DNA of 64,000 bases from Oscillospiraceae bacterium (GCA_009780345.1 WRAG01000006.1:547-64546), one strand, 5' to 3'. Positions 4,538 to 58,370 are shown, numbered from the stretch's first letter. Made by a program: numbers and translations. Notes: generated by a model not told the origin, from the sequence alone.

Positions 4538-4543
4538 TTGGAT

Positions 4544-4572
4544 ATTATACCTTACAGAATATACAATGTCAA
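4544..4572 (-). promoter_or_regulatory. sigma-A promoter of engB (likely leaderless)
   Basis: TTGACA-17-TATAAT-atccaa-ATG, no SD. Confidence 0.75.
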
Positions 4573-4620
4573 TAATTTATCCTAATTTGTTCCCCCTATG
4601 AGGGGGACGCAGGGGGTGGA

Positions 4621-4744
4621 TAGGGCTCCCGAAAAATGAGAGCCATTGCTCGATTTTTTTGGGAAAGAGGCGCAACCGCCCATAATGTGAGCTTTTGTCG
4701 CGTTTTCTGCGACAAAATGAGCAAAAAGGGCGAGTTGCGACGAC
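4621..4744 (+). repeat. Intergenic repeat family A, copy 1
   Basis: tagggctcccgaaaaatg...tttttggga...cgcccataa...agggcgagttgcgacg; homologous to the reverse complement of 51549..51671. Confidence 0.85.
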
Positions 4745-4746
4745 TA

Positions 4747-6414: not shown

Positions 6415-6457
6415 ATCGCCGCACACGCTCCTATCAATGTAATATTTTCCACAACGA

Positions 6458-6487
6458 TAGTTTTGCCAAAAAAAATAAACCGCAAAC
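6458..6487 (-). promoter_or_regulatory. Putative sigma-F promoter of lonB
   Basis: GTTTG-15-GGCAAAACTA resembles the sigma-F consensus; lonB is sigma-F-controlled in B. subtilis. Confidence 0.5.
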
Positions 6488-6512
6488 GCGGTTTATTTTC
6501 TATTTGTAAGCA

Positions 6513-7238: not shown

Positions 7239-7261
7239 AGATTTTCACCTCCTCGTAATGC

Positions 7262-7292
7262 ACTTTACAGCATTACCTTACGTCGCAAGCAA
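7262..7292 (-). promoter_or_regulatory. MerR-type promoter with 19-bp spacer
   Basis: TTGCTT-19-TAAAGT upstream of the merR-family gene. Confidence 0.45.
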
Positions 7293-7409
7293 TAGGTTAC
7301 GTTAGGGGATTTTTCGAAAGTTGTCAAAATCTTTGATTTTGTTAACAACTTTCATGAAGATTTTGTGGGTTTCAAAATCTTTATTCCCGTTTTTTTTTAT
7401 TCGCAATTT

Positions 7410-8777: not shown

Positions 8778-8828
8778 TTTCGTCGCTCCTAACAAAATGG
8801 GTTGCACTAAGTGCAACCCATTGATTTC

Positions 8829-8984
8829 CTACTTAGATTCTTTTTGTACTCGCTCGCAGCCTTGATTTCCTACTGTGCAAGAAGTTTTGCAAGCCGATTG
8901 ACAAGACGTTTGACACTCGCCGCAACCGCCCTCGCTTGCACTTTCTTTCAAAACTGCTGAGTTCAATGTTTTAATGTGTCCCAT
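8829..8984 (-). CDS. scfA: SCIFF six-cysteine precursor peptide (51 aa, below ORF-track cutoff)
   Basis: MGHIKTLNSAVLKESASEGGCGECQTSCQSACKTSCTVGNQGCERVQKESK; GAGGA RBS. Confidence 0.96.
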   Translation of the reverse strand: MGHIKTLNSAVLKESASEGGCGECQTSCQSACKTSCTVGNQGCERVQKESK

Positions 8985-9014
8985 AATAATTCCTCCTATG
9001 TAAAATTAAAAATG

Positions 9015-39885: not shown

Positions 39886-39923
39886 ACAAAGTAAAAATAA
39901 TGATATAGAAAGGATTGGTTAAA

Positions 39924-41339
39924 ATGAAGAAAGTTATAGCTTTATTTGTTATGTTGATAATGGTTTTTTCTGCTATTACCGCATTTGCAGATGGACCGGA
40001 GTTTAATCGGCTTTGGTTTATGCAAAATATTATCGCCGACAATAATTTGTATGCGGAAGTTGACGGAGAATATCTTTTCGCGCTTGCGCTTAGGGAAATT
40101 TTAGATAATCATCCCGAGCTTTACGAATTGGCGGCGCGGGCGATGCTTTCGGGGATTGACGAGAATTCGGTTTTCCGAAACAGAGAGGAAACGCGCGATT
40201 GGTTTGAGGCGCTTGAAGGAGAGTTTGGCGGAATCGGGGTTCATGTGCTGCAAGTTGCGCGGGGGCTTTTGATAACCGGACTTATTCCCGGCGGCGCGGC
40301 GATGGACGCGGGAATAATGCTTGACGACGTTATAATCGCGGCGAATGGCACATCTTTTGAAGGACTTACGCAAGATCAGATGGTTAGCCATGTTCGCGGC
40401 GAGGTTGGATCTGAGGTTCAAATTTCAGTTCGACGTTCGGGAGAGCATTACCCGCTTAACTTCACGGTTACGCGGAGGATTGTGGAAGAAGTTCCGGTAA
40501 TATATGAAATTTTAGAAGATTATGACATTATGCATTTGAGAGTTCTAACGTTTAACTCAAGAACCGATACATACGTTGAAGCGGCACTTGCGGCGGCTGA
40601 CGAGGCGGGAATCACGAAAATTTTGTTGGATTTGCGCAATAACGCCGGCGGATTTATGGAGCAAGCAGTTCTGCTTGCGAATAGGTTTGTATATGGCGAA
40701 CGAGTGATTGTGACCGAGCGATATAGAGAAGGAGTGGACGATGAAGTTTTCGTATCTTCCCTTGTTTATAAGAAGTACGACGTTGTTGTGCTTGTGAACG
40801 AACGTTCGGCGTCAGCGGCAGAGGTTGTCGCGGGCGCGATTGCCGACAACGAAGTCGGCCCTGTTGTTGGAACCCGCACGTTCGGAAAAGCGACTATTCA
40901 ACGGTGGAACACAATGCCGTGGGGCGAGTCAATCGTATATACGATTGCACATTATTTAACGCCCAACGGATATTTCATACATGGAAACGGAATTATTCCT
41001 GACGTTTTGGTTACAAACACACCGGAGAGGTTTAATGTTGAGGAATTCGGAAGATTTTCGTTCGAGGCTGACTATTGGTTAGGGTCTCGAGGCGAGAATG
41101 TAAGGCTTGCGAGAGAGGCGCTTAGGGTTCTTAACATACATATCAGCGATGTTTACAGCGAGTATTTTGACGAAAATTTGCGAGATGCGTTGATTACGTT
41201 TCAGTATAGCGCGGGACTTTATCAAAGCGGAATGCTTTGCGTAAATACGCAAGTAAATTTGTATATTCGGTTGCAAAACGCCATGGTTGTTGTGGATAGG
41301 CAGTTTGAAGTCGGACTTAGACTTTTGTCGGAGATGTAA
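39924..41339 (+). CDS. S41 carboxyl-terminal protease (CtpA-like): PDZ plus PG-binding domain
   Basis: FGGIG, LDLRNNAGG, SASAAEVVAG, GTRTFGK. Confidence 0.9.
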   Translation: MKKVIALFVMLIMVFSAITAFADGPEFNRLWFMQNIIADNNLYAEVDGEYLFALALREILDNHPELYELAARAMLSGIDENSVFRNREETRDWFEALEGEFGGIGVHVLQVARGLLITGLIPGGAAMDAGIMLDDVIIAANGTSFEGLTQDQMVSHVRGEVGSEVQISVRRSGEHYPLNFTVTRRIVEEVPVIYEILEDYDIMHLRVLTFNSRTDTYVEAALAAADEAGITKILLDLRNNAGGFMEQAVLLANRFVYGERVIVTERYREGVDDEVFVSSLVYKKYDVVVLVNERSASAAEVVAGAIADNEVGPVVGTRTFGKATIQRWNTMPWGESIVYTIAHYLTPNGYFIHGNGIIPDVLVTNTPERFNVEEFGRFSFEADYWLGSRGENVRLAREALRVLNIHISDVYSEYFDENLRDALITFQYSAGLYQSGMLCVNTQVNLYIRLQNAMVVVDRQFEVGLRLLSEM

Positions 41340-41442
41340 AATCAGGCACGCCTGCACCATAAAAAACACGAAATGTGAACAAATTGTAAAAATTTGGCAA
41401 AAACTATTGACAAAAAAATTTAATATTCGAAAATCACCTTTG

Positions 41443-41468
41443 AAAGCCTGCGAATGCAGGCTTTTTTT
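41443..41468 (+). terminator. Intrinsic terminator after the ctpA-like gene
   Basis: aaagcctgc-gaat-gcaggcttttttt. Confidence 0.75.
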
Positions 41469-41583
41469 GTGCTTTTGAAAGATTTTGCAAAATTTGGAAA
41501 ATGTTGTTAACTGAACCCTTTCTCGTGCTAAAGTGTGTTTGTGAAGCGCATCACAAAAAATTTTTCAAGGAGGTTTGGGAATT

Positions 41584-42117
41584 ATGGAATACCCAAAAGT
41601 CGGCAAAATCGACGACACATATGAAGTTGAAAACGCCGAAAAGACGCAAGAAACTGCGAAAGCGGACGAGACAGAGTACGCAAACGACTACGAAGCGGCA
41701 AACGAAGAGCGATTCATTCAATTTCTTCAAAACTTACCCGAAGTTCAGGAGCTTATCCGAGGATACTGCAAATACGAAAGAGAAGTTGCAGACAATATGA
41801 TGCGGGAAGATTTTGAGAAAATTAAAGAAGCTTATCCCGAGGTTAAAGCGACCTGTGTCGCGGACTTGGGCGAGGAATATTGCAAACTTGTCGCGATGCA
41901 ATATGATCCTGTTGTCGCGTATGAAGCAGTTCGGGCGAAAGCTTTGCGAGAAACGAAAAATCCGCCGCCGTATATCGGCGCAGTCAACAACACAGACGGC
42001 GAGGAAAAAGATTATTATTCTCCCGAAGAGGTGGACAAGCTTACTCGTGAGGATTTTAGAAAAAATCCGAGGTTGCTTGATGTTGTTCAACGATCAATGC
42101 GGAAGTGGGCGGAGTAA
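41584..42117 (+). CDS. Putative capsid scaffolding protein
   Basis: Acidic helical protein directly before the capsid gene, basic C-terminus (RSMRKW); AAGGAGG RBS. Confidence 0.6.
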   Translation: MEYPKVGKIDDTYEVENAEKTQETAKADETEYANDYEAANEERFIQFLQNLPEVQELIRGYCKYEREVADNMMREDFEKIKEAYPEVKATCVADLGEEYCKLVAMQYDPVVAYEAVRAKALRETKNPPPYIGAVNNTDGEEKDYYSPEEVDKLTREDFRKNPRLLDVVQRSMRKWAE

Positions 42118-42178
42118 ATCTGCCTAAAAGAGTACAAATTGTATCAAAAAAATCAAAATTCAAAGGAGAGATTTAAAA

Positions 42179-43009
42179 ATGGCTTATTCAAAATTTAAAC
42201 CAACTGTATGGAGCGAAAACATACAACGGCAATTGGAAGGGCACTTAGTTCTAAAGCAAGACTGTGATTTTGGGTATGACGGCGACGCGAAACGCGGTGA
42301 GAAAGTTAAAATTTTGGGAATCGGACGTCCGACGGTGGGCGATTACACCGGCGACGACATAGGCGCACCCGAAACGGTTGACGGAACCGCTATGTTCCTT
42401 GAAATCGACCAGGCAAAGTTTTTTAACTTTATGATTGACGACGTTGACCGAGCGCAAGCAATAAACGGACTTATGGAATCACTTGTCAAGGAAAGCGCGG
42501 CGGCGCTTGCAACCGAGGCGGATTCGCATATCGCTAAAGTTATCTACGAGGAAGCGATTGACACGACTACCGATAACGCGACACCGAGCACGAAAATTGC
42601 CACCGCCGAAGCGGCGAAGAAAATGGTTGACAAAGCGTTCGAACGACTTTGGGCGAACGGCGTTCAGACAAACGACACGATTACAATCACTATTTCGCCG
42701 TGGTTCTATAACCTGTTTAAAGATAGGTTGACCGAACTTGCGAGCAACAACGTTGATCTGATCAGACAAGGCGCGATTGGGATGTACAACAACGCGCTTG
42801 TGCGATTATCGAACAATTTGCATAATGACGGAACCGACGATTTTATGATTGTTCGAACAAACAACGCTATCGCTTACGCGGGTCAGATTGATGAGACCGA
42901 AGCTTATCGCCCCGAAGGATTGTTTGCCGACGCGGTGAAAGGACTTTACACCTACGGCGCGAAAGTAGTTCGTCCGAAGGAAATGGTAGTACTAAGAGCG
43001 CATAAGTAG
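42179..43009 (+). CDS. Major capsid protein (P22-coat-like, HK97 fold)
   Basis: FKPTVWS, GEKVKI, IDQAKFFNFMIDDVD, FADAVKGLYTYGAKVVRP. Confidence 0.85.
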   Translation: MAYSKFKPTVWSENIQRQLEGHLVLKQDCDFGYDGDAKRGEKVKILGIGRPTVGDYTGDDIGAPETVDGTAMFLEIDQAKFFNFMIDDVDRAQAINGLMESLVKESAAALATEADSHIAKVIYEEAIDTTTDNATPSTKIATAEAAKKMVDKAFERLWANGVQTNDTITITISPWFYNLFKDRLTELASNNVDLIRQGAIGMYNNALVRLSNNLHNDGTDDFMIVRTNNAIAYAGQIDETEAYRPEGLFADAVKGLYTYGAKVVRPKEMVVLRAHK

Positions 43010-43039
43010 GCAGTTCAGAGGACAAGTAACATAAATTAT

Positions 43040-43144
43040 GTTTGCGTCAAATTGCGTAAGATTTCGTCGAAAACGTGAGGGAGCGTGTATATAAAATACC
43101 TGACCTCGCGTTTTCGGCGGAAGATTGCGTGATTTCACGCAAAC
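43040..43144 (-). repeat. Intergenic repeat family C, copy 2
   Basis: Reverse complement of 33493..33597. Confidence 0.88.
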
Positions 43145-43164
43145 CCCGAAAGGAGATGAACAGT

Positions 43165-43533
43165 TTGACTTGGTATGACATAAAATTAATTACACTACAA
43201 AAGATGTTTGCGTTGAATGGAGATCGAATTGTTGAGGACGACACCACCATGCCATATCTTTCAGCGATGCCTTATACTTGCAACGAAGGTTTGTCACTTT
43301 TGTACGCTGACGATGATAAGATTACACCGGTGACGCCTGACGATTACGAGTTTAAGTTGGACGATAAGGGCGCGGAATTGCTTCCGCTTTACATGGCATC
43401 GCAACTTTATAAAGACGAGGATGTCGGACTTGCCGCGATTTACCGCAACGAGTTCGAAGTTGGGCGAGAGCAGTATCTGCGAAGTGGTCAATCTGACGTT
43501 GGCGCGGCAAAGGTGGTGCGGCTTCGTGGTTAG
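43165..43533 (+). CDS. Putative head-tail adaptor
   Basis: MTWYDIKLITLQKMF...LLPLYMASQLYKDED..YRNEFE; position after capsid; AAGGAG RBS then TTG. Confidence 0.55.
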   Translation: MTWYDIKLITLQKMFALNGDRIVEDDTTMPYLSAMPYTCNEGLSLLYADDDKITPVTPDDYEFKLDDKGAELLPLYMASQLYKDEDVGLAAIYRNEFEVGREQYLRSGQSDVGAAKVVRLRG

Positions 43534-45496
43534 GTTTAACGTTCCGCCGACCGTTGGGCGCAAAGTGCTGAACATTGATAACTTTCGCGGTGTGGACTTA
43601 ACCAGTTCGCCAACGCAAGTAAGTTTATCACGGTCGCCCGAGGCGATAAATATGATACGTGACTCTGTCGGCAGTATACGCAAACGTATGGGCTATGAGA
43701 AAGTCGGAGAGTTTTCGAACAGAATACAAGGTGTATATACCTACAACGGAGAAACCATTATTCACGTGGGGCGGCGGCTTTTTGATATAAATGGAAATGA
43801 AATCGCCGATACGAATCACGCGATTGCGGCTTCCTCAAATTTTGTCGGATTTGAAATGGGCGGCAAGTTATATATCAAAGGTGTTACCGTCGGTGGCGCC
43901 GGCACCGGATACTTTGTATATGACGGAGAAACGATAAGACATGTTTCCGCCGCCGAGGTTGCATATGTTCCGCATGTGTTTGCCGGCAAAGGATTTGGCG
44001 GCGGAACGGCGTTAGTAACTCCGCAGGGCGGCGAGTTTGTGGAACCTTTTAATTTGATTGGATATAGATGGTCAGAAACTTTTGGCGGTGATATGCCGCT
44101 TTTTGACTTAGGAGGATCTGCTTTCGCGGACCTTGCAAGAAACACCACCTCTATAATAAGTGTTGAAATATTACAATCAAACGGCGAATGGGAAGAGCGC
44201 CCAGCCAACGCTTCCACAACTCCGGGAAATCCTCATAGAGTTCATTTTTGGACGCATATTACACGACCGTCGTATGTATTACTTGGCGAAGACTGGCTAC
44301 GAATTACTGCAGAATATAGACCCGCCGCAATTCCCGACAATGTAAGATCGTTCACGAGAACCAATATCATAGGATTTTCCGGTGTAAACGGAGCACGAAA
44401 CGTGGCACTTTTTACCGGTGATAGCGAAAATCCAAATCGGTTCTTCTATTCAAAGGAGGATAATCCGACTTACGTTCCCGATACAAATTTTACTGTTATC
44501 GGCGAACCGAACTCGGCGATTATGGGATTTTCTACTGTGGATGGCAGGCTTGCGGTACATAAAGACGGACGTGAGGACGTTGCGGTTTATATGTGCCAGG
44601 GCGAGTTTGACAAAGGCGATGACGGTATTTTGAAAACCATTTTTCGCACAATTGGCAGCGTAAAAGGCGACGGCGCAATTTCGCGGCGGTGTTTTTCGTC
44701 GTTGGATAACGACCCGCTATTCCTTACCCGAAACGGAGTGTTCTCGCTTACCGCCCGCGATATAATGGGCGGAATAATCGCGCAATCACGGAGTTATTTC
44801 GTAAACGGCGCGCTTAGAAACTTCTCGCCCGACGATCTCGCAACTGCGCACGCTTGCATTTATCGAGATTTTTATATGCTTTGCGTTGGCGGGCAAGTGT
44901 ATGTGCTTGACGGACTGCAAAAATCATACGAGCGGAACGAGCCGCAATCGGCTTTCCAGTACGAGTGCTATGTTTTGGACAATATAAAGGCTGATTTCAT
45001 GTGGACGCAAGGGGATGATTTGTATTTTGCGCATAATTCAGGCGGAGGGGGCGCGGGAGCAAGCGCGGTTTACAAATTTTTCTCGGATTCCGGCAATATA
45101 GAACATTTTAACGACGACGGCGAAGCGATTGAGTCATATTGGGATTTGCCCGAGCTGTACGGAAATTTATTTTATCGTAAAAAGACATTTATATATTTAG
45201 CGGTTCAGCTTGACGCGGCAATTGCGACCGGGCTTGAATTGTGGGCGCAAGTTCGCGGGTTTTGGAGGAAAATCGGCGAAAACTTCGTCCGCGGACGATA
45301 TTTTAGTTGGAGCAACATCAAGTGGAGCAGATGGACGTGGTCAACCGATAGAACAACTCGCACGCTTAGCCGAAAGTTCAGAATAAAAAAGGTGGATAAG
45401 GCGAGGTATCGTTTAATGAACAGAAATTTAAACGAACCGTTCGCGATTTACAGCGTCGCGCTTGAATACACCGAAAACGGAAAATACCAAAGATAG
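43526..45496 (+). CDS. Putative podoviral tail nozzle (tail tubular B / stabilisation protein)
   Basis: About 656 aa, beta-rich; IDNFRGVD..RSP..NM..G..RKRMG N-terminal pattern; gene order. Confidence 0.6.
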   Translation: MVRFNVPPTVGRKVLNIDNFRGVDLTSSPTQVSLSRSPEAINMIRDSVGSIRKRMGYEKVGEFSNRIQGVYTYNGETIIHVGRRLFDINGNEIADTNHAIAASSNFVGFEMGGKLYIKGVTVGGAGTGYFVYDGETIRHVSAAEVAYVPHVFAGKGFGGGTALVTPQGGEFVEPFNLIGYRWSETFGGDMPLFDLGGSAFADLARNTTSIISVEILQSNGEWEERPANASTTPGNPHRVHFWTHITRPSYVLLGEDWLRITAEYRPAAIPDNVRSFTRTNIIGFSGVNGARNVALFTGDSENPNRFFYSKEDNPTYVPDTNFTVIGEPNSAIMGFSTVDGRLAVHKDGREDVAVYMCQGEFDKGDDGILKTIFRTIGSVKGDGAISRRCFSSLDNDPLFLTRNGVFSLTARDIMGGIIAQSRSYFVNGALRNFSPDDLATAHACIYRDFYMLCVGGQVYVLDGLQKSYERNEPQSAFQYECYVLDNIKADFMWTQGDDLYFAHNSGGGGAGASAVYKFFSDSGNIEHFNDDGEAIESYWDLPELYGNLFYRKKTFIYLAVQLDAAIATGLELWAQVRGFWRKIGENFVRGRYFSWSNIKWSRWTWSTDRTTRTLSRKFRIKKVDKARYRLMNRNLNEPFAIYSVALEYTENGKYQR

Positions 45497-45508
45497 GAGG
45501 ATAAGATT

Positions 45509-46465
45509 ATGAAGATGAAAAGAATTACCAATGCGGATTTGCACGGAAGAGGCGTTTGGAATCAACCTGATACGCCGGGGCTAGACAGACTTGAAATGCA
45601 AAGAAAAGTTGAGGAAATCGCGCGCGAGGTTATTATTCCGGTGATAAACGATAATTCCGACACTTTTGAGCAATTTGCAGAAAACACAGATAACCGTCTT
45701 GACGAGAAAGCAGATAAAACCGACCTGCAAAGTCAACTCGACGAGAAAGCAGACCGATCAGAGCTTGCCGCCGAACGCACCGCACGAATTGCAGGCGATA
45801 ATGAGTTGCAAACGAACCTTAACGCGCATAGCGCCGACAACGTGCGGCATATCAACGTACAAGAACGTGCTAACTGGAACAATATGACACCAATTACTAT
45901 GTTTAACACACACAACAATGATAACGTGCGGCATATCACAGGAGCAGAACGCAATAGTTGGAACAATATGACCCCGGTTTCAACGTTTAATGCGCATGAT
46001 AATAACAATGTGCGGCATATCACGGCGCAAGAGCGAACCAATTGGAACAGTATGACGCCTATGTGGGTATTCGGCAATCATACTAACGATTTCGAAAAGC
46101 ATTTAAGTTTAACCGACCGTGAAACTTGGAACGCTAACATTAAAATGCTTGACGAAGTTCTAGACAATGTTAGAACTATCGCCGCCGGAGGAACCGGCGG
46201 ATTTGCCGGAGGTTGGAACGCAGGCGCAGGCAACGGCGGCGCAGTAGGGCGCACCGCAATGGCGGAGCATGGATTTGCCGGAGGCGCAAGCGCAAGGTCA
46301 ATGTCAAATAACAATATACAGTTAGGCAGCGGTGAAAATATAGACGAATTAACGTTTCAAGTCTACCAATTCTGTATGATGAACTCGGACGGAACCATTC
46401 CGCCCGAGCGAATTCCGCAAATCGGCGATATTTCTGCGTCGCTAACCGCGATATTGGGGGTGTAA
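45509..46465 (+). CDS. Putative tail fibre
   Basis: KAD coiled coil, four 28-aa HxxxNxRHITxxERxxWN repeats, Gly-rich C-terminus. Confidence 0.65.
   Translation: MKMKRITNADLHGRGVWNQPDTPGLDRLEMQRKVEEIAREVIIPVINDNSDTFEQFAENTDNRLDEKADKTDLQSQLDEKADRSELAAERTARIAGDNELQTNLNAHSADNVRHINVQERANWNNMTPITMFNTHNNDNVRHITGAERNSWNNMTPVSTFNAHDNNNVRHITAQERTNWNSMTPMWVFGNHTNDFEKHLSLTDRETWNANIKMLDEVLDNVRTIAAGGTGGFAGGWNAGAGNGGAVGRTAMAEHGFAGGASARSMSNNNIQLGSGENIDELTFQVYQFCMMNSDGTIPPERIPQIGDISASLTAILGV
45827..46132 (+). repeat. 84-bp coding tandem repeat (x4)
   Basis: Units start at 45827, 45911, 45995 and 46079. Confidence 0.85.
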
Positions 46466-46468
46466 GCG

Positions 46469-47020
46469 ATGAATAACGAAAATTTGACAATCGCCGAACA
46501 ATTAACTGCGGTGAATGATGTTAAGCACGAAATAAAAGACGCATTGGTTGATAAAGGCGTAGATATGACGAATGTTCCGTTTACCGAATACCCTTTGAGA
46601 GTCAAGGAAATACAAGGCGATGGAGTTGAACAAAATTTTCTCGATTTCGCGAACGGTAATAGTCATATAACCCTGCCAAAAGGACTTACTCGTTTAAGAC
46701 CATTTCTGTTCAACCCTCAATGTATAGAAATTTGGCGCGTCACGATTCCGGAAGGTGTAACATCAATAGAGTGGGGCTCTTTTACTAACACTCAAATAGG
46801 GCAAGTTGATTTCCCGAATAGCCTTGTAACTATAAATGGCTGGGCGTTTGAAAACTCCTCACTTTTTGGAGACATTAATCTTGGTAGCAATATTCAGTCG
46901 ATTGGAACCGACGCGTTTGTCGGAACTTGGGTTCAATCAATTACTATCAACAGGCCGCCGGGAAGCGTTAGTGGCGCGCCGTGGGGCGCGACGAACGCGA
47001 CGGTTATGTGGACAGGATAA
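46469..47020 (+). CDS. BspA-type leucine-rich repeat protein (possible receptor-binding)
   Basis: VTIPEGVTSIEWGSF, FPNSLVTINGWAF, SIGTDAF; GAPWGATNATV end. Confidence 0.75.
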   Translation: MNNENLTIAEQLTAVNDVKHEIKDALVDKGVDMTNVPFTEYPLRVKEIQGDGVEQNFLDFANGNSHITLPKGLTRLRPFLFNPQCIEIWRVTIPEGVTSIEWGSFTNTQIGQVDFPNSLVTINGWAFENSSLFGDINLGSNIQSIGTDAFVGTWVQSITINRPPGSVSGAPWGATNATVMWTG

Positions 47021-47067
47021 CAAAGCAGAATATATTCAATTGTAGAATTATAGAAAGGAGTGAGATT

Positions 47068-47229
47068 ATGCAAAAACTAAAAATGTTCAGACTCGTCGCC
47101 GAGGACGGAAAAATTTTGACCGACGGCAAGTTAAAAGGTTCGGTTGTCGATGTTTTGGAGGGAAAAGTTCAAGATTGGATGGAAATTGAAAACGAGGACG
47201 AGGAATTTGAAAATAAGGAGGAAAATTAA
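47068..47229 (+). CDS. Small phage-type hypothetical protein (53 aa)
   Basis: AAGGAG RBS; MQKLKMFRLVAEDGKILTDG...WMEI. Confidence 0.65.
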   Translation: MQKLKMFRLVAEDGKILTDGKLKGSVVDVLEGKVQDWMEIENEDEEFENKEEN

Positions 47230-47990
47230 TGAAAGTATTTTTAGATCCAGGGCATAACTTCGCCCCGCCTGATACCGGAGCAACCGGATTCGGGCTGCGC
47301 GAGCAGGATGTTACGTTTCAGGTTGCCGATACCGTTCGAGCGCTATTGGAACTTAGCGGCGTAGACGTTCGAATGAGCCGAAATAATCTAACCGACATTC
47401 TCGGACGAACGGTTACCGAAAGCCTTACGTTGCGCGCGCAAGGAAGCGACGACTTCGGCGCGGATTATTGCGTGTCAATTCATTGCAACGCCGGCGGCGG
47501 GATTGGCGCCGAAACTTATGCGTTTGTCAGCGGCAGTTTTGGCGATCAATTGGCGCAAAAAATTCAAGCACAACTGGTAAATATGGGCATGAGAAACCGC
47601 GGCGTTAAATACTCACAAGATTTGTTTATGTTACGCCGTCCGAAAGCGCCCGCGGTGCTCGTAGAGCTTGGATTTATCGACAACGCGAACGATAACGACA
47701 TTCTGCGAAATCGACAGTTTGATCTCGCCGAAGCGGTAACGAAAGGCATTTGCGAGCAGCTAAATATCGATTATAAAGGAGGCGAAGATGACGTGACAGA
47801 TGTTGTTGATACTACTGACACTAATGATGTTACTGATACAACAGAACATTGGGCGAAACAATATCTTGACAGCTTAACGGCGGCAGGCATTGTGGAAAAT
47901 CCCGAAAAGTGGGAAGATTTCGATAATCCGGTAACAAAAGGCTTGCTGCTTGCGCTGGTTGATAAAATGATGGATAATCTGAAAGGATGA
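47229..47990 (+). CDS. N-acetylmuramoyl-L-alanine amidase (Amidase_3, endolysin-like)
   Basis: FLDPGH, E..V, SIHCNA, AVLVELGFIDN; C-terminal HWAK SLH-like bit; no signal peptide. Confidence 0.88.
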   Translation: MKVFLDPGHNFAPPDTGATGFGLREQDVTFQVADTVRALLELSGVDVRMSRNNLTDILGRTVTESLTLRAQGSDDFGADYCVSIHCNAGGGIGAETYAFVSGSFGDQLAQKIQAQLVNMGMRNRGVKYSQDLFMLRRPKAPAVLVELGFIDNANDNDILRNRQFDLAEAVTKGICEQLNIDYKGGEDDVTDVVDTTDTNDVTDTTEHWAKQYLDSLTAAGIVENPEKWEDFDNPVTKGLLLALVDKMMDNLKG

Positions 47991-48101
47991 GAGATCGTGC
48001 AAAACGAAAGACAAAATTGGTTTAAAGAATGGGGATTTTTAATACTGAAAATCCTTAAAAAAATATTAAACTTCATAAAACACTAAAGAGAGGTGAAAAA
48101 C

Positions 48102-49193
48102 ATGAGCAATAATAACAGGCATCAGTTCTTCGCGCCGGGAAGTACGCCGAATACTTTGGTTCCGCGATACGGATATATGAGTCCGCAAAACAGAATGTAC
48201 CAAGATTCGAATTTTCAGAATCGTATTCCGGTCGGTTCGGTCGTTCACACGACAGGCGGCACATACCAACTGACGAGCAACGGCGGTCAGCGGGTTCAAC
48301 CGCAGCCCGCTCCGAACTTCATGTCGCAGAATAACTTCCAAACGCAAGCGCATGCCAACAATATGCGACAGCTTCAAACAAACGCGCTGCATTCCGCGAT
48401 TGCGCAAAATAATTTTGCGGCGCAGCAGAGAGTGCAGGACTATAACAATATGCGCCGCGAAGTGAATCAAACCGCCGAAGAACGGGCGAGACAAGCGTAT
48501 GTTCAGCGACTGCGTTCAATGAACAGTTTGCCGCGCTTACTGCAAGCGCAAGGAATTTCGGGCGGCGCGGCGGAAAGCACCGCCGCAAGAATGTCGAGCA
48601 ATTTCGATAATTTGCAATTCGGCATCATGCAAAATCGCGATAACGAACTTTTCAACATTCAAAACCGAATCGCGCAAGCGAGAACGCTTGCCGCGCAAAA
48701 CGAAGCGAATATCAGAAGTCAGCACGCAATGCAGCAAATGCAACTAGAGCAAAATCTTGAAGATCGGCGTATGCAAGCGTTTGACCGCGAGCGAGCGGAT
48801 TGGGAACGTCAACGACAGGAGATGATTGCGACAATTCCGCAACATTACGACGATTTCCAAGCGCATATCAACTATTTAAGAGCAGTTGGCGACCCATACA
48901 ACTTGATTCCGCACGTTACAATGGCAAGAAATGAGAAGATCAGAAATCAAGAGTTGGAAACAGAGTCACGACAGGCGGAAGACGAAGCAAGATTCAATCA
49001 ATACTTAACAACCATTCAAGCTCTTCCGCCGCATATGATCTGGAATCATATGTTGCATTACGAGCCGAATAGTTGGGTTTACAATGTACTTCGAGGATTT
49101 TACGAAGCAGCGATAGAGCGCGAACGGCTGATAAGGCAAAACATCGAAACGCACAACGCAAACACCGCCCATAGATGGGGACTTGTTCGGTAA
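48102..49193 (+). CDS. Q/N/R-rich helical protein, possible internal virion/ejection protein
   Basis: ARQAYVQ..LP..LQAQGISGGAAES pattern, helical composition, last gene of the cassette. Confidence 0.4.
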   Translation: MSNNNRHQFFAPGSTPNTLVPRYGYMSPQNRMYQDSNFQNRIPVGSVVHTTGGTYQLTSNGGQRVQPQPAPNFMSQNNFQTQAHANNMRQLQTNALHSAIAQNNFAAQQRVQDYNNMRREVNQTAEERARQAYVQRLRSMNSLPRLLQAQGISGGAAESTAARMSSNFDNLQFGIMQNRDNELFNIQNRIAQARTLAAQNEANIRSQHAMQQMQLEQNLEDRRMQAFDRERADWERQRQEMIATIPQHYDDFQAHINYLRAVGDPYNLIPHVTMARNEKIRNQELETESRQAEDEARFNQYLTTIQALPPHMIWNHMLHYEPNSWVYNVLRGFYEAAIERERLIRQNIETHNANTAHRWGLVR

Positions 49194-49200: not shown

Positions 49201-49246
49201 GTCAATTTAAAAAATGCCCTGCTAGCAGGGCATTTTTTAAATTGAC
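49201..49246. terminator. Perfect palindrome closing the phage-like cassette
   Basis: gtcaatttaaaaaatgccctgct/agcagggcattttttaaattgac; overlaps the -35 of the next gene. Confidence 0.8.
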
Positions 49247-49305
49247 AAATAACAAAACAAATGTTACAATGCTAACTGATATATGTACAGAACGGAGCAT
49301 ATTAA

Positions 49306-49704
49306 ATGTATTTAACCAAAGAGTGCGACTACGGTATAAGGGTGATTCGAGCTTTAGCGACGGGAAATAAGAAAACCGTAAAAGAAATATGCGGCTCAGA
49401 GCTTATTCCTAAGCAGTTTGGATATAAAATCTTAAAAAAGTTAGAACATGCCGGCTTTTTGCGAAGCATACGCGGCTGCGACGGCGGATATCAATTAATC
49501 AAACCTCCTGATACTTTTACGATTTTTGACATAGTATCCGCAGTCGATCAAAGCTTGTTTATAACCGACTGCCTGCGAAAAGATAATGACTGCAATTTCA
49601 AAAGCAGAGCACAAGTTTGCGCTGTTCATCTAGAATTCGAGCGCATACAAAAAGAATTATCCACCGAATTGAAACGATATACCATAGCTGAACTGATGTC
49701 ATAA
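49306..49704 (+). CDS. Rrf2 family transcriptional regulator
   Basis: DYGIR, KILKKL..AG..SIRGCDGGY, three C-terminal Cys; TTGACA-17-TACAAT promoter at 49242-49270. Confidence 0.92.
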   Translation: MYLTKECDYGIRVIRALATGNKKTVKEICGSELIPKQFGYKILKKLEHAGFLRSIRGCDGGYQLIKPPDTFTIFDIVSAVDQSLFITDCLRKDNDCNFKSRAQVCAVHLEFERIQKELSTELKRYTIAELMS

Positions 49705-50964: not shown

Positions 50965-51525
50965 TCACATATCATTAAAATACCTCACTATCCCCGAAAA
51001 TATCCCCCACGCAAGTTTGCGTTGATACTCCTCGGTTCGAAGCATTGCCGCCTCGGCGGGATTGCTTAAAAACCCACACTCCACCAACACCGCCGGAACC
51101 ATTGAGTTTTTCAACACGAAAATTTGCGTATTCACCGGTTTAATCTCCCGCGGATTATCTTCTCCAACCGCTTGCGCAATCCCTGCCCTTATGCTCGTCG
51201 CAAGCGTTTGACTTCCCTCGTTTGAAGTGCTGTAAAACACCTGCGCGCCGCTATATCGGCTATCAGCGAACGTGTTCATATGTATGCTGATAAACATATC
51301 GGCATTTGATTCGTCTCTATCGCGAACACGCTCAAGCAAGTCGCTGCGCCGCTGCGTCATTCCGGCGGGACGATCAGGGTCAAACGTTCCGCGGTCGTCA
51401 TATCGGGTAAGAATCGCAACCCCGCCGCTTTGCTCGATAAACTCTTGAAGTTTCAGCGCAATCGCAAGGTTTATCTCCTTTTCGATTGTTCCATGCCCCG
51501 ACGCCCCGTCGTCAATCCCTCCATG
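50965..51525 (-). CDS. cwlD: 3' segment of interrupted germination-specific amidase CwlD
   Basis: HGGIDDGASGHGTIEKEINLAIA..LTR..ISIHMN..GAQVFY..VLVECGFLSNPAEA..YQRKLAWGIFSGIVRYF; no start or RBS of its own. Confidence 0.85.
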   Translation of the reverse strand, partial: HGGIDDGASGHGTIEKEINLAIALKLQEFIEQSGGVAILTRYDDRGTFDPDRPAGMTQRRSDLLERVRDRDESNADMFISIHMNTFADSRYSGAQVFYSTSNEGSQTLATSIRAGIAQAVGEDNPREIKPVNTQIFVLKNSMVPAVLVECGFLSNPAEAAMLRTEEYQRKLAWGIFSGIVRYFNDM

Positions 51526-51671: not shown

Positions 51672-53354
51672 CTAAAAATTCCACACAATTTTGATTTCCC
51701 TCGGCACATTTTTATCGCCAACCTTGCCGACATAAATCGTTTTGATAAATCCACCCACGATTTCGTGAGTAAGTTTATCAATCCGCGAATACTTGACGAT
51801 TATCTTCTCTTTAATATTGTCGTCAGCTAATCCCTGCTTGATAGCTTCAATTTCCATATCAATCCTTGAAACACGCTCGTTGAAGGTATCAATGCTATCC
51901 TGCGCGGTTTTGCTAAACTGAATAAATTGCTCCGATGTGATAATTCCGTCAACTCGGTCGGAATAAAGCAACTCTATAACCTTATTCTTCTTTTCGAGTT
52001 GCGCCGCAATGTCCGACTTCTCCTTCGCAAGCTTATCCAACTTGCGTTGCTTACCGGCGTCGTCAACCTTGATTTTCGCGGAATCGTGATATTCAGTCAG
52101 CAATTTATTGACCTCAATCAAGACAATATCCTCTAACGCGTCAAATCGAATAGACTTTCCGTTATCGCAAACATCAGTTGAATTGTTATAGGTTCGGCAC
52201 TTCAGATACCGAAATCCGCCCTTGTTCTCCGGTGTGTTCACCTTTGTCAGCGTATTTTCGCAAACACCGCAGAACACTTTTCCGTTAAAGATATGCTTCT
52301 CGCCTGTTCGCTTATCGGGACGAGTTCTCGTGGAAAGTTTCGCTTGAACTCGCTCCCAAATATCCATACCAATAATCGGCTCGTGCGCATTGAAAGTCCG
52401 TGTCCACTTATCACGAGAATGAATCCGCCGCTTTTTATTCTTATAACTGATATTCTCGGTTTTGTTTTGGCAAAGCGTTCCGATATATTCCTCTTTGCGA
52501 AGTATGTAGTAAATCGTGTCATTCGTCCACATATTGCCCGTAACGCGCTGGCGATTACTGTCGCGATTGCTGTATTTTGAACCTTTCGATTTTTTGTAAT
52601 TAGCCGGATTGAGGATTCCGCGATTATTCAAATTTTGAGCAATCGTTAAATATCCCATACCGTTCAAGAACATATCGAAAATCTCGCGAACAACTTCCGC
52701 CGCTTCCTCGTCAATCACAAGATGATTTTTATCAAGCGGGTCGCGCATAAACCCGTACGGCGCGAACGAACCCGTCCACTCGCCGTTCTGCTTTTTGTGA
52801 TTGAGCGTTCGGCGAATATTATCCGATAAATCTTCGAGATACCATTCGTTAATCAGTCCGTTGATTTGCCGCGATTTTTTGTTTCCCTTAATATCGGTAT
52901 CGGCGTTGTCAACAATCGAAACAAATCGGATATTCCATTCCAAAAATTTATCGTGGATATATTTTTCAACCATTTCCAACTCACGACTAAAACGCGATTG
53001 AGTTTTGCATAAGACAATATTAAATTTTTGTTCTTCCGCATCTGCGATTAGCTTGTTCCACTCGGGGCGACTTTTGTCCGCGCCCGAATAATCTTCATCG
53101 CAGTAAATTTTATAAACATCCCAGCCCTTTTCCATTGCATACGCGACAAGCATGGATTTTTGATTCTGTATGCTTTCACTTTCATCCGTCGCGTTACGCT
53201 TGTCCCTGTCCTCGTCCGACAGGCGGACGTAAATTGCCACTTTGCTGAGTTGTCCAAATCTCTGATTTGGCGAACAACTCGTACTTGAAGATTTCCCAAG
53301 AACGCAAGACGGGCTTTTGTCGCCGCGTGATTGGTTGAAATCCACCGTGTTCAT
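51672..53354 (-). CDS. Large serine recombinase (SpoIVCA/CisA/TndX-like)
   Basis: IYVRLS (catalytic Ser), SIQNQ, D..YSG..RP, SRFSR, APYGF, HEPII, zinc ribbon CGVC..C, coiled coil. Confidence 0.95.
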   Translation of the reverse strand: MNTVDFNQSRGDKSPSCVLGKSSSTSCSPNQRFGQLSKVAIYVRLSDEDRDKRNATDESESIQNQKSMLVAYAMEKGWDVYKIYCDEDYSGADKSRPEWNKLIADAEEQKFNIVLCKTQSRFSRELEMVEKYIHDKFLEWNIRFVSIVDNADTDIKGNKKSRQINGLINEWYLEDLSDNIRRTLNHKKQNGEWTGSFAPYGFMRDPLDKNHLVIDEEAAEVVREIFDMFLNGMGYLTIAQNLNNRGILNPANYKKSKGSKYSNRDSNRQRVTGNMWTNDTIYYILRKEEYIGTLCQNKTENISYKNKKRRIHSRDKWTRTFNAHEPIIGMDIWERVQAKLSTRTRPDKRTGEKHIFNGKVFCGVCENTLTKVNTPENKGGFRYLKCRTYNNSTDVCDNGKSIRFDALEDIVLIEVNKLLTEYHDSAKIKVDDAGKQRKLDKLAKEKSDIAAQLEKKNKVIELLYSDRVDGIITSEQFIQFSKTAQDSIDTFNERVSRIDMEIEAIKQGLADDNIKEKIIVKYSRIDKLTHEIVGGFIKTIYVGKVGDKNVPREIKIVWNF

Positions 53355-54871: not shown

Positions 54872-57800
54872 TTAATTATCTGCCCACATTTCACACTGGG
54901 TCATAACTGTTGAGATTACATCTTCCACGCCTTCCGGCGGATATTTATATTTTTTAAGAAGTCGTTTAACCATACGTCGCATATCAGCGCGAGCAGATTC
55001 TTTTTTCTGCCAATCAATAGTACGACTTTTACGAAGCAAATCTGTAAGCTCTTGTGTCATTTCAATAAGAACATCATTTTGATAAAAATCTTTTATTGCC
55101 GTTGATTTTGTAAGCGCGTCATAAAAAGCCAATTCCTCATAGGACAACCCAAGTTCATCGCCTTCTTCTTGCGCTGTTGTCATATCTTTTGCCATTTTCA
55201 TCAACTCAGCGATTACTTCCTCGTTAGAAATCATACCATTTATATACTCTTTAATCAAGCGGGACATCATTTCAGAAAACTTTTCCGATTTTACGAAATT
55301 GGTTTTTCGATAAAGTGAAATTTGTTCCGCTAATAGTTTTTTAAGTATCTCAACCGCCAAGTTGCGTTCTTCCATATTCGCAATTTCAGCAAGAAACTTC
55401 GAGTCAAATAACGAAAATTCTTTGTCAATATCCGAAAACAAATTGATTACGCCTTTACTTTGAATGCTCGCTTTTAAAAGTTCGTTCACACGTTCGTTGA
55501 TTTCTTTGAGCGACAAAGGTTTGTCTTCGCTGGAAATGCGAGTTAAAAGTGTGCGTACAGTTTCAAAATATGCCGCTTCAAGTCTTTGTTGCGAATTCAA
55601 CAATGAACGACAAAGCGACAATGCTTGACGTAACAACATTGATTCTTTGATATATTCTTCTTTTTGTTTTTCTTTGTCGATTGCAGATAAGAAATTTACA
55701 CCGCCGCTAATAGTCTTTGCTCTTTGCAAGTCAGTAGATTTATCGTCCATAAATTCTGAATGATCAAATCCGTGCAACAAGTCTCGACAAACTTCCAATT
55801 TTTCAATAAATTTCGGCAAGGCGGTTTTGGCAATATCTTGTTCGCTATAATTTTGCTTGTCGCGTTTAGTGTAGTCGTTCATCGCTTGCTTTAATGCGCC
55901 TGCGATACCGACATAATCCACAACCAAACCACCCTCTTTTTCCTTATAAACACGGTTGACGCGCGCGATTGCCTGCATAAGATTGTGTCCGGACATTGGT
56001 TTATAGACATACATTGTTGCAAGGGATGGCACATCAAATCCTGTCAGCCACATATCCACAACAATAGCAATTTTCAACGGGTCATCGTCGTCTTTAAATT
56101 TCTTTGCCATTTCGTCTTTGTGTCTTTTGTTTCCGATAATCCCTCGCCATTCTTCGGGGTCTTTATTATCAGAAGTCATTACAACGCCGAGTTTTTCGTT
56201 CCAATTCGGCCTCATTTGTAATAACTTTTTATAAATATCCATTGCAATCGGGCGTGAATATGCTACAATCATTGCTTTACCGGTTAATTCATACTGTCGA
56301 TTTTCTTCATAGTGCTTAATGATATCTTCGCATAGTGTAGTTATGGTTTGTTCGTTGCCGAGAATAGAATCCATTTTCCCAAGTTCTTTTTTACTTTTTT
56401 CAATCGCGTGTGGTTCAGCGTTTGCTGCCATAATTTCATATTCGACATCAATAAGTCGTAAAATATCTTCGTCAAGTTTCAGGTGAATAACACGGCTTTC
56501 GTAATAAACGGGACGTGTCGCGCCATCTTCAACCGCCTGCGTCATATCATATACATCAATATAATCGCCGAAAACTTCAATAGTTGAACGGTCTTTTGAG
56601 GAAATTGGGGTTCCTGTAAATCCTATGTAAGTTGCGTTCGGTAAACTTTCGCGAATAATTAGTCCGAATGATTTTTTGATTTGCCCTTCCACGCTCACTT
56701 TTTCGTCAACAAATTGACTGCGATGCGCTTCGTCCGCGATAACAACTATATTTCGGCGATCTGAAAGAACGTCAAACGATTCCTCGAACTTTTGCGCCGT
56801 AGTAAATATGATACCATTAGCTTCTCGCCCTGCTAACAATTCTTTCAAATTTGCACGGCTTGTAGCGCGTTCCGGAGTTTGTCGAAGAAAATCGGCGCAC
56901 TTTGAAAACTGTCCATAAAGTTGGTCGTCAAGGTCATTTCGATCGGTTAATACGACAATCGTTGGTGAATTAAGTGCATCTTGCAACAATTTTGCGTAAA
57001 ACACCATTGACAACGACTTGCCACTACCTTGCGTATGCCAAAACACACCGCCTTTGCCATCTGTTTCAGTAGCTTTTGCAGAAGATGTCACAGCCTTACA
57101 AACCGCAAAATATTGGTGATAAGCGCCTAAAATTTTTGCATCGTCAGAAAAACAGATGAAATTCTTAATAATATCGAGTAAACGCGCTTTGTTAAATATT
57201 CCTTCAATTAAGGTATCATAATCCGCATACTGTGTGCTTTCGTAACTACCGTCTTTACTTTTCCATTCCATAAAACGGTCTTCGCTTGCCGTAATGGTTC
57301 CGGCTTTTGATATTGCAAGGTCACTTGTTATCAAAAAAGCGTTATAAGTAAACAAAATTGGGATTTCGTGCATATAATTGCGAAGTTGATTGTATGCTTC
57401 ACTTACATCGGCTTCCTCGCGCGACGGTGATTTCACCTCAAACACCACCAACGGCAAACCGTTTATAAATATAATAATATCCGGGCGTTTTGTACTATTT
57501 TCTGAAATAGTCCATTGATTAGCGACAATAAAACTATTTTTACCGGGGTTTTCAAAATCTATCAGTCGTACCAAGGTCGCATGTTGTTCGCCGTTGTCGA
57601 AATAATTTACTTCAACACCGTTTTGAAGGTAATCCGTAAACTGTTTATTCTTTTGTATAAGAGCGCCGCTTCCGAAGTCGCGTAATTTGGCGACCGCCTC
57701 ACTTAACGCACTTTCCGGCAGTTTCGGATTAACACGCCGCAGAGCTGACATAAGCTCGTCTAAATAAAGCGCATCAGAATAATCCCGCGCCACATCCGGT

Positions 57801-57880
57801 CCGTAAATATGCGTATAGCCCAACGTGTTACGAAGTATTTCAATTATAGCATTTTCGTAGTTAGCTTCGGTGAACGACAT
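54872..57880 (-). CDS. hsdR: Type I restriction enzyme R subunit
   Basis: RPDIIIFINGLPLVVFEVK, WHTQGSGKS, DEAH, GFTGTP, MWLTGFDVP, QAIARVNR. Confidence 0.96.
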   Translation of the reverse strand: MSFTEANYENAIIEILRNTLGYTHIYGPDVARDYSDALYLDELMSALRRVNPKLPESALSEAVAKLRDFGSGALIQKNKQFTDYLQNGVEVNYFDNGEQHATLVRLIDFENPGKNSFIVANQWTISENSTKRPDIIIFINGLPLVVFEVKSPSREEADVSEAYNQLRNYMHEIPILFTYNAFLITSDLAISKAGTITASEDRFMEWKSKDGSYESTQYADYDTLIEGIFNKARLLDIIKNFICFSDDAKILGAYHQYFAVCKAVTSSAKATETDGKGGVFWHTQGSGKSLSMVFYAKLLQDALNSPTIVVLTDRNDLDDQLYGQFSKCADFLRQTPERATSRANLKELLAGREANGIIFTTAQKFEESFDVLSDRRNIVVIADEAHRSQFVDEKVSVEGQIKKSFGLIIRESLPNATYIGFTGTPISSKDRSTIEVFGDYIDVYDMTQAVEDGATRPVYYESRVIHLKLDEDILRLIDVEYEIMAANAEPHAIEKSKKELGKMDSILGNEQTITTLCEDIIKHYEENRQYELTGKAMIVAYSRPIAMDIYKKLLQMRPNWNEKLGVVMTSDNKDPEEWRGIIGNKRHKDEMAKKFKDDDDPLKIAIVVDMWLTGFDVPSLATMYVYKPMSGHNLMQAIARVNRVYKEKEGGLVVDYVGIAGALKQAMNDYTKRDKQNYSEQDIAKTALPKFIEKLEVCRDLLHGFDHSEFMDDKSTDLQRAKTISGGVNFLSAIDKEKQKEEYIKESMLLRQALSLCRSLLNSQQRLEAAYFETVRTLLTRISSEDKPLSLKEINERVNELLKASIQSKGVINLFSDIDKEFSLFDSKFLAEIANMEERNLAVEILKKLLAEQISLYRKTNFVKSEKFSEMMSRLIKEYINGMISNEEVIAELMKMAKDMTTAQEEGDELGLSYEELAFYDALTKSTAIKDFYQNDVLIEMTQELTDLLRKSRTIDWQKKESARADMRRMVKRLLKKYKYPPEGVEDVISTVMTQCEMWADN

Positions 57881-57905
57881 AGGATGACCACCTTCTTCTT
57901 TATTA

Positions 57906-58370
57906 TCATTGATTGCTATAGTAACATCTCTTAACTTCATCTCCAAACTTATCAAAAACCCACTCAATGCCTTTTTCTCCATATCTAATAACAATATATT
58001 TTGGAATATTATCGGTATGCCATCTTAGCCTGTCTTGATATTCATTATATTCAGCTAATGTAGGATTATAGTATGAAGCGAAGAAAGGGTTATAGGTTGA
58101 CGTTTGTTGCATTTGTGGTCTTGGCTGATTGATAAAATTTTTAGCGGCAAGCATTGCATTGTAAACCACAATTTCTTTTTCATAATGCTCTTCGGTTTTT
58201 CCCAGTCTATAAACGGGGGCAAAAATATTCGATGAATTTATTGCAATTAAATTGTCGTCCCGAAAATTTCAATCTTCTTTTAATTCAACTGCATTTTTGC
58301 CGATAGTTATAATAAAATCAACTACATCTTGTGGTGTAACATTGAAACTCCAATAATTATTATTTATCAT
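57906..58370 (-). pseudogene. Hypothetical gene with in-frame TGA at codon 34
   Basis: GAGG RBS, ATG at 58370, TGA at 58269-58271; same frame continues into ORF 57906..58169. Confidence 0.5.

Follow-up and report, generated by a model that had tools for sequence, protein, structure and literature searches.

Two unlinked operons with matched promoters in a termite-gut Clostridia genome: a candidate podovirus-derived particle system resembling a gene transfer agent

We analyzed a 64,000-nucleotide stretch of an Oscillospiraceae bacterium genome (GCA_009780345.1 WRAG01000006.1:547-64546; hereafter, the window), in which nine co-oriented plus-strand open reading frames (ORFs), all uninterrupted, fill positions 41584-49193. 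The genome (G000) is a 2.05-Mb metagenome-assembled genome (MAG) of 59 contigs, 96% complete, and the window lies on contig C6. We consider it probable that this cassette forms the operon for head, tail and lysis in a podovirus-derived particle system that resides at two chromosomal loci, and thus belongs to a candidate viriform similar to the gene transfer agent (GTA) of Faecalibacterium prausnitzii (FpGTA). Gene content, the split into two loci, matched promoters, a conserved junction and purifying selection were all observed directly, and taken together they describe a co-regulated, selection-maintained particle system that is most likely an FpGTA-like gene transfer agent. A first-pass annotation of the window had described nine intact co-oriented ORFs between terminators, flanked by S41 protease and Rrf2 genes and free of attachment (att) repeats, and scans for ORFs, families and repeats bore this out. 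It had also proposed that the module is podoviral in origin and domesticated or GTA-like, its portal and terminase being encoded at another place. When we searched all contigs for such an orphan portal-terminase locus, we found it on contig C3, where both genes lie behind a predicted promoter that matches that of the cassette, which supports the proposal. The cassette had been called stand-alone as well; it is instead one of two loci.

No terminase or portal was detected in the genome other than the pair on contig C3, which is flanked by pstB/phoU on one side and by an aldo-keto reductase gene on the other. This portal, an intact ORF, was found through the 48%-identical portal of a faecal-virome scaffold (L002, described below), where it adjoins a capsid homologue. 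A genome-wide profile scan gave one Terminase_3 match, at the C3 locus, and no match to Terminase_6N, TerL_ATPase, Phage_portal or the HK97 capsid. Furthermore, when all ORFs of 20 related phage-like loci were compared with the genome, phage-type matches were confined to C3 69-74 kb and C6 42-49.7 kb. Because terminase and portal are found only at C3 and the capsid homologue only at C6, the two loci are complementary, single-copy gene sets, and the break falls exactly at the portal/scaffold boundary. No portal, terminase, integrase or replication gene is present within 41.3-49.3 kb of the window; neither a flanking direct repeat (att) nor a tRNA, both of which we searched for, was found at the ends of the cassette; and no integrase or replication gene was seen at either locus, their genes being packaging, head, tail, lysis or regulator genes. 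As in a viriform, structural and packaging genes thus reside in the chromosome without replication, integration or excision functions. The second operon spans C3 69.9-78.5 kb, so that both operons together amount to about 16 kb (sum of coordinates), and the G+C content of the two loci (0.464 and 0.460) is close to that of the genome (0.458).

At the C3 locus, the host genes phoU and pstB (minus strand) are followed by a gene for an XRE-type helix-turn-helix (HTH) regulator, also on the minus strand and divergent from c1, which encodes a putative small HTH regulator of 101 aa and has its own TTGACA-17-TATATT promoter. Hence, the earlier statement that no repressor is present holds at the cassette, but not for the partner locus, which carries this XRE-type regulator. 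An 82-aa small-terminase-like (TerS-like) ORF, which matches phrog_15261 (unknown function) but no terminase family, overlaps the start of the large terminase gene (TerL; Terminase_3, 7e-46, and Terminase_3C), in which the ATPase and nuclease domains are intact. After a gap of 569 nt (C3:71554-72121, corresponding to 7555-8122 of the locus reference L006), occupied by a copy of a host repeat, comes the gene for a P22-type portal (PF16510, 1.3e-6, 27.7 bits against a cut-off of 26.1; phrog_156, 4e-17); full-length portal homologues at 76, 72 and 73% identity measure 523-554 aa. The operon continues with a DUF6973 protein and a 120-aa protein with three hydrophobic segments, holin-like by hydropathy, and ends with a set of genes, duplicated in part, for membrane proteins and proteins with a lysozyme domain, facing the convergent aldo-keto reductase gene of the host. 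The packaging ORFs are intact. We also aligned contigs of public metagenome runs to this locus. An identical contig from an independent study (run X2) bridges pstB, XRE, c1 and the start of TerL (L006 3295-6229), a second identical X2 contig bridges portal to DUF6973 (L006 9366-10231), and a contig of about 92% identity (runs X4/X5) bridges pstB to TerL (L006 4275-7348).

The strongest evidence that both operons may belong to one regulon is their shared promoter, as predicted from the DNA. A hairpin with a T-run, followed by a sigma-A-like promoter with an extended -10 element, precedes the scaffold gene in the window and in five relatives (L050, L051, L053, L054 and L066). A regular expression built from these six scaffold-side sequences and run over both strands (4.1 Mb) matched the genome exactly twice: at 41504-41534 of the window, on the plus strand (TTGTTAACTG-N7-TCTCGTGCTAAAGT), and at C3:69865-69895, where the 82-aa TerS-like ORF starts about 80 nt downstream. 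By hand calculation, about 0.05 matches would be expected by chance. The two sites, identical at all 24 specified positions, give the consensus TTGTTAACTG-N7-TCTCGTGYTAWAGT. With up to 3 mismatches this consensus found 2 forward sites, 0 reverse sites and 0 for a reversed control pattern, and allowing up to 5 mismatches revealed no further site in the genome. In 3.76 Mb of other loci, the regular expression matched only the five relatives' sequences from which it had been built. The scaffold-side promoters of more diverged relatives differ, as in the L053 variant GTGATAAC...GTGCTATGAT, and in two other genomes with a split system (G061 and G062) a crude word test found that the upstream regions of the capsid side and of the terminase side have no word of at least 14 nt in common.

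A candidate regulator of the two promoters is c1. It gave no Pfam or PHROG match, even at E values up to 10; its only family signal was a sub-threshold match to RinA (E 0.09), and its nearest Atlas clusters are small HTH regulators. Homologues of c1 lie upstream of packaging genes in L042, L068, L072 and L146, and further off in L093. A role of c1 as late activator is therefore put forward as a lead and not as a finding. On the model that we favor, the XRE protein would hold c1 off, and on relief c1 (or a host factor) would fire both matched promoters. Terminase, portal, scaffold and capsid would then build small heads that are filled with DNA, adaptor, nozzle, fibre and leucine-rich-repeat (LRR) protein would form a short tail, and the amidase would release the particles by lysis. 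We infer this regulatory cascade, as well as particle assembly, packaging of host DNA and DNA transfer, from the genes. More tentatively, this lineage of termite-gut Clostridia may own an active podovirus-type GTA that has kept the phage late switch, with an XRE repressor, a RinA-like activator and a late promoter before both operons. If so, the two unlinked operons would fire together, and the promoters would be expected to co-evolve within each genome.

We then asked how the cassette is conserved. Among 61 genomes (G000 and 60 of the same order), 17 including G000 have a capsid homologue, and all the others are at most 52% identical to it. A scan of metagenomes yielded 21 loci, eight of which encode capsids at 75-97% identity; none of these eight shows a portal upstream of the capsid, several of them having little upstream sequence. 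The closest, L050, carries the S41 gene (91% identical at the aa level) and then scaffold to amidase in the order of the window, with a capsid at 97%. L054 likewise has S41 (59% by tblastn; 57% in the codon alignment), scaffold and capsid (82%). In L066 an opposite-strand MGMT-type gene precedes the same hairpin and promoter, and in L052 (81-1943; capsid 86%) an opposite-strand Bro-N gene is present before the capsid gene and a scaffold gene is missing. L051 and L053 have about 200 nt of upstream sequence at most, and L065 and L067 start inside the capsid gene. The upstream hairpin with its T-run is readable by eye in L050, L054 and L066. Two outcomes had been named beforehand as fatal to domestication, namely absence from close relatives, or a full prophage at this site in them, and lack of expression with neutral evolution. 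Close relatives do carry the portal-less cassette at the S41 junction (L050 and L054), with no full prophage seen at the site, and the ratios of nonsynonymous to synonymous substitution rates (dN/dS) were not those of neutral genes.

These ratios were computed for the cassette genes by the Nei-Gojobori method with our own script, using L050 for comparison and with the Q-rich gene outside it. For the eight genes compared, dN/dS was 0.02-0.12 at dS 0.33-0.48: scaffold 0.10, capsid 0.03, adaptor 0.057, nozzle 0.057, fibre 0.115, LRR 0.108 and amidase 0.024 (79 codons held by L050) are among them. The flanking S41 gene gave a similar value, 0.078 (188 codons), at dS 0.67. Against L053, where dS is saturated, capsid, adaptor, nozzle and amidase gave 0.05-0.10 and scaffold 0.36. 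Since the portal-less junction is shared with relatives, purifying selection has acted on the split form. The cassette genes, as followed on short metagenome contigs, appear to be inherited with the host and are under purifying selection. This is not the picture of a decaying prophage: ORFs are intact, dN/dS does not exceed 0.12, and no att repeat or integrase was found at either locus.

Regarding the individual proteins, most cassette starts are preceded by Shine-Dalgarno sequences, and in Pfam and PHROG scans the scaffold-like, 152-aa, 53-aa and Q-rich ORFs had no significant family. The first ORF (41584-42117, plus strand as all that follow; 177 aa) lies directly upstream of the capsid gene. 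Its only match is Pfam DUF7729 at E 0.014, below the family cut-off, and weak homologues occupy the same position in most related loci; we call it scaffold-like from its position and from this weak similarity to the pre-capsid ORF of relatives. The major capsid protein (42179-43009; 276 aa; phrog_267, 4e-40), encoded by a single-copy gene, is 33-37% identical to capsids of phages of Aeribacillus, Streptomyces, Clostridium perfringens and Mycobacterium and of the deep-sea thermophilic phage D6E. The adaptor ORF is open from a GTG at 43075 (152 aa), but its start is most likely the ATG at 43156, giving a protein of 125 aa (43156-43533).

The first-pass annotation had guessed, from gene order and weak motifs, that this ORF encodes an adaptor and the next a tail nozzle, and predicted folds agree with both assignments, moderately for the first and strongly for the second. 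The AlphaFold2 (AF2) model of the 125-aa protein has a predicted local distance difference test score (pLDDT) of 85.5, and its top Foldseek matches in the PDB are P22 gp4 and Sf6 gp7 (template modeling [TM] scores 0.51-0.57, probability 0.84-0.89, E values of only 0.4-0.6). We thus read it, with moderate confidence, as a P22-gp4-like head-to-tail adaptor. A complex prediction for the C3 portal with the C6 adaptor gave no answer, with scores of 0.00 and 0.00. A stretch of about 75 residues is absent from the adaptor clade of the window (7 sequences) and present in nine more distant homologues.

The 656-aa protein (43526-45496; phrog_3287, a virion structural protein, 2e-20), whose start overlaps the adaptor stop, was modeled by AF2 on 30 homologues (pLDDT 83, predicted TM score 0.82). 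Foldseek matched this model to the tail of cyanophage A4 (1.9e-19), the T7 portal-tail complex (1.6e-16) and P22 gp10 (2.6e-16), and named the T7 gp12 nozzle at rank 24, with E values ranging from 2e-19 to 1e-12. The match is strong, and the model identifies the protein as a podovirus tail nozzle (hub). Among annotated proteins, the one closest to it is gp15 of Bacillus phage Page, and the fibre gene directly follows the nozzle gene, the same order as gp15-gp16 of Page. A portal assignment for the 691-aa ORF was rejected, because its fold is that of a nozzle and its homologue in Page is gp15 and not the portal, gp4. Of the components of a P22/T7-type tail machine, the portal and the nozzle are therefore recognized, and the adaptor moderately so.

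The tail fibre protein (45509-46465; 318 aa) matched several tail fibre PHROGs (1e-10 to 1e-7), and its gene contains three tandem 84-nt (28-aa) repeats at 45819-46070 that are 68-71% identical to each other. It is followed by a BspA-type LRR protein (46469-47020; 183 aa; Pfam LRR_5, 9e-17), which may have a receptor-binding role, and by an acidic 53-aa protein (47068-47229) with a good ribosome-binding site in front. The latter was considered as a holin and rejected, being acidic and having no hydrophobic segment. The endolysin-type N-acetylmuramoyl-L-alanine amidase (47229-47990; 253 aa) matched Amidase_3 (1e-35) and phrog_435 (3e-48). The last gene (48102-49193; ORF from 48093) encodes a Q-rich coiled-coil protein of 363 aa from its ATG, without a family and with nothing informative among Atlas clusters. 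Its homologues are 51% identical in L053 and 25-37% in L060, L086, L095, L096, L137 and L138, where they lie downstream of the nozzle gene, and it is probably a virion or ejection component.

Several observations weigh against an FpGTA-like system. The MAG, at 96% completeness, could lack further loci, and the genome is the sole member of its GTDB family. The S41 junction is found on only two contigs (L050 and L054), the close relatives all being short contigs, and the context varies, with the MGMT-type gene in place of S41 in L066 and the Bro-N gene without a scaffold gene in L052. Every cassette ORF lacks a hydrophobic segment, so no holin is recognizable in the cassette, just as had been noted from the sequence at first; the 120-aa protein of C3 is a holin candidate named from its hydropathy. 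There are also signs of partial wear: the insertion of a repeat between TerL and portal, which could be polar, and a shortened adaptor, missing, as aligned, about 75 residues of its 192-204-aa homologues.

The same genomic evidence would also be expected of a phage-derived particle that is maintained by selection and transfers no genes, serving as a PBSX-like killer or lysis particle or in protein delivery, with the packaged DNA incidental. The genes do not address the fate of the DNA, the LRR protein and fibre could serve targeting, and the FpGTA authors leave this possibility open for their own system (PMC12946183). We nevertheless hold such a particle to be unlikely here, as an intact terminase (ATPase and nuclease) and a portal have been kept, which are needed for packaging and not for killing, and neither locus shows a toxin-like cargo gene. 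Less probable still is that the two loci are inert debris, either of one old prophage broken by rearrangement or of two unrelated remnants, intact by chance or because they are recent. Cryptic prophage fragments are common, and the host repeat between terminase and portal, the short adaptor, the missing scaffold gene of L052 and the failure to recognize a holin would all fit. However, no ORF is damaged among the nine of the cassette or those for packaging, the eight cassette genes compared have dN/dS of 0.02-0.12 at dS 0.33-0.48, the truncated junction is shared, and the G+C content is ameliorated. Moreover, a promoter motif unique to both loci is unexpected for unrelated remnants and would be erased by neutral decay. 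Finally, a contiguous prophage wrongly split over two contigs by the assembly is very improbable, for although the MAG has 59 contigs and portal and scaffold are adjacent in most homologues, both loci are embedded in long contigs and bordered by host genes on each side, the separate contig L050 repeats the order from S41 and scaffold to amidase, and the contigs of the independent study bridge pstB-XRE-c1-TerL and portal-DUF6973 without differences.

The FpGTA-like particle system that we favor can be compared with known systems. To our knowledge, nearly all GTAs known for a long time were those of Alphaproteobacteria. A podovirus-like GTA was first published in January 2026, and it was also the first to come from a gut commensal (PMC12946183). 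This FpGTA, which its authors term the first podovirus-like GTA-like element, is encoded by two operons 125 kb apart: operon I (10.5 kb) contains TerS, TerL, portal, scaffold, capsid and several hypothetical proteins, and operon II (5.5 kb) contains baseplate, fibre, receptor-binding protein, holin and endolysin (Borodovich et al., Nat Commun 2026, PMC12946183). The particles measure about 40 nm and carry 8.4-8.9 kb of host DNA, and proteomics data exist (PMC12946183). Similarly, our system belongs to a host among the Clostridia and has only genes of podovirus type for head, packaging, short tail and lysis, two unlinked operons, no replication or integration genes, and an endolysin in the tail/lysis operon, and the gene order of its family is portal, scaffold, capsid. 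Unlike in FpGTA as described, the break lies between portal and scaffold, so that the capsid is grouped with tail and lysis genes; no holin was recognized beside the amidase, the 120-aa protein with three hydrophobic segments being at the C3 locus; and the host is a family-level-distinct termite-gut lineage. FpGTA appears to be the closest published system in gene content and layout. The best 120 relatives of the L002 capsid include no Faecalibacterium name (one is from Acidaminobacterium chupaoyuni, 74%), and there is no Faecalibacterium record among the best 80 of 478 GTDB capsid relatives.

The locus would thus extend a system of the FpGTA kind to a distinct, uncultured lineage of termite-gut Clostridia, with a different split of the genes. 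No such system in termite-gut Clostridia is mentioned in the titles and abstract openings listed by our searches of the literature on gene transfer agents. The FpGTA description does not appear to mention a feature like the unique promoter motif that both loci have here, beside a retained phage-type regulator pair. Promoter and regulator pair together offer a testable handle on how the particles are switched on.

Other systems are more distant. RcGTA of Alphaproteobacteria also consists of structural and packaging genes kept by the host at several loci, co-regulated and without replication genes. However, RcGTA is siphovirus-like, belongs to an unrelated sequence family and is under the host regulators CtrA and GafA, whereas a phage-type XRE protein and a small HTH regulator are retained here. 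PBSX of Bacillus subtilis is a single contiguous myovirus-like prophage region, unlike the podovirus-like system at two loci described here. What it would have in common with our system is a Gram-positive host and a chromosome-encoded, defective phage-like particle that packages host DNA and is released by lysis (PMC12946183). PBSX acts as a killer particle, or tailocin (PMC12946183). Homologous capsid, portal and nozzle and the nozzle-fibre order are shared with Bacillus phage Page and with L055, L060, L062, L072 and other loci at which TerL, portal, scaffold, capsid and nozzle are contiguous. In phage Page, however, the genes are contiguous and accompanied by replication genes (FtsK/SpoIIIE-like, a replication initiator and helicase loaders), none of which is found in the system of the window.

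The wider family of homologous loci is mostly contiguous. Five loci with capsids at most 67% identical (L055, L056, L060, L062 and L068) have a same-strand portal upstream of the scaffold, adjoining it in 4/5 and 3.3 kb away in L062. A GTDB scan by capsid alignment gave 478 relatives, and the best 80, which we examined, are all 40-60% identical and come nearly all from Clostridia-type Firmicute MAGs, with a few isolates. Of the GTDB loci whose upstream sequence exceeds 3 kb, 58/69 have a portal within 5 kb upstream of the capsid, and of those whose downstream sequence exceeds 4.5 kb, 48/57 have a nozzle homologue within 4.5 kb downstream. At 16 loci, ORFs homologous to genes of this genome are found on both sides of the capsid, 8.6-17.1 kb apart, which suggests short islands and not full prophages, with the caveat that at least three of them (L091, L114 and L142) have an amidase as their right-hand "host-like" gene, and this may belong to the element.

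We searched five genomes with a capsid that lacks an adjacent portal, and in 4/5 a portal homologue is present elsewhere. As other genomes also hold capsid and portal apart, splitting recurs among homologous loci, and it is a state that a replicating phage could not tolerate. On the complete chromosome of an Anaerofustis sp. (L075 and L155; G061 C1:1.595-1.635 Mb), the capsid lies at about 1.605, the terminase at about 1.616 and the portal at about 1.626 Mb. In a Eubacteriaceae MAG (L120 and L156-L158; G062 C2:7-80 kb), the distance to the capsid is about 48 kb for the portal and about 55 kb for the terminase. In both, capsid, terminase and portal are spread over 20-55 kb, and host-like genes lie between them. 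These findings suggest that short islands and scattered versions of the module are common across Clostridia, which bears on capsid-mediated gene flow in gut communities.

Two related sequences are unannotated faecal-virome scaffolds of about 10 kb, each deposited as "Bacteriophage sp." L002 (MT836592) appears to be ordered TerS, TerL, portal, scaffold, capsid, two small ORFs, nozzle homologue and an ORF cut by the end. L001 (MT836833) matches only the adaptor, nozzle and fibre of the window, and its last ORF looks integrase-like by eye, similar ORFs being present in L082 and L062. Both scaffolds could be phage fragments or host DNA with a GTA-type island. Viral contigs scanned with the portal and with the nozzle contained no close relatives.

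Two repeat structures were noticed at the C3 locus. One copy of a modular intergenic repeat, which has 82 genome-wide matches, fills the 569-nt stretch between terminase and portal, and another is found at L006 2706-3300, between a putative response-regulator-like ORF and phoU; stretches of this repeat have a 20- to 60-fold higher summed contig depth in metagenome runs, and Rfam gave no match for L006 positions 2000-9000. In addition, at L006 11219-14422 (C3:75.2-78.4 kb) where the packaging operon ends, a unit of about 1.5 kb is duplicated, and there is a partial third copy, with repeat identities of 74-94%. This unit encodes two proteins, one proline-rich or with a lysozyme domain and the other with a membrane anchor at its N terminus.

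The cassette itself is set among host genes. Upstream lies the gene for a secreted S41 C-terminal processing protease (39915-41339, plus strand; Peptidase_S41 7e-39, PDZ 2e-8, PG_binding_1), with dprA and topA further upstream. We rejected it as a prohead protease, given its signal-peptide-like N terminus (by eye) and the PDZ and PG-binding domains typical of an envelope protease; it is a conserved neighboring host gene outside the particle system. Between this gene and the cassette, a terminator-like hairpin with a T-run, read from the sequence at 41442-41465 (plus strand), would insulate the cassette against transcription from upstream. At the other end, a predicted bidirectional terminator hairpin (49201-49246) closes the cassette. 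The Rrf2 regulator gene that follows (49306-49704, plus strand; Pfam Rrf2, 1e-26) has its own promoter, at a promoter-like site at 49242-49270, and is not part of the particle system; two chromate-transporter genes lie further downstream.

A large serine recombinase gene downstream of the cassette (51672-53354) belongs to a separate element. On the minus strand of the window, between 50965 and 63550, a CwlD-like Amidase_3 gene is present in two pieces: its C-terminal part occupies 50965-51360 (profile positions 55-173 of 174), and an 80-aa N-terminal ORF near 63310 ends just after DAGHG. About 12 kb of DNA with lower G+C content separates the two halves, with the serine recombinase at one end. 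The same insert contains an ATPase-like ORF and ORFs at 54872-61772 that we read as putative type I restriction-modification genes, and it seems to be a skin-type element that interrupts a spore-cortex gene and carries a predicted defence system.

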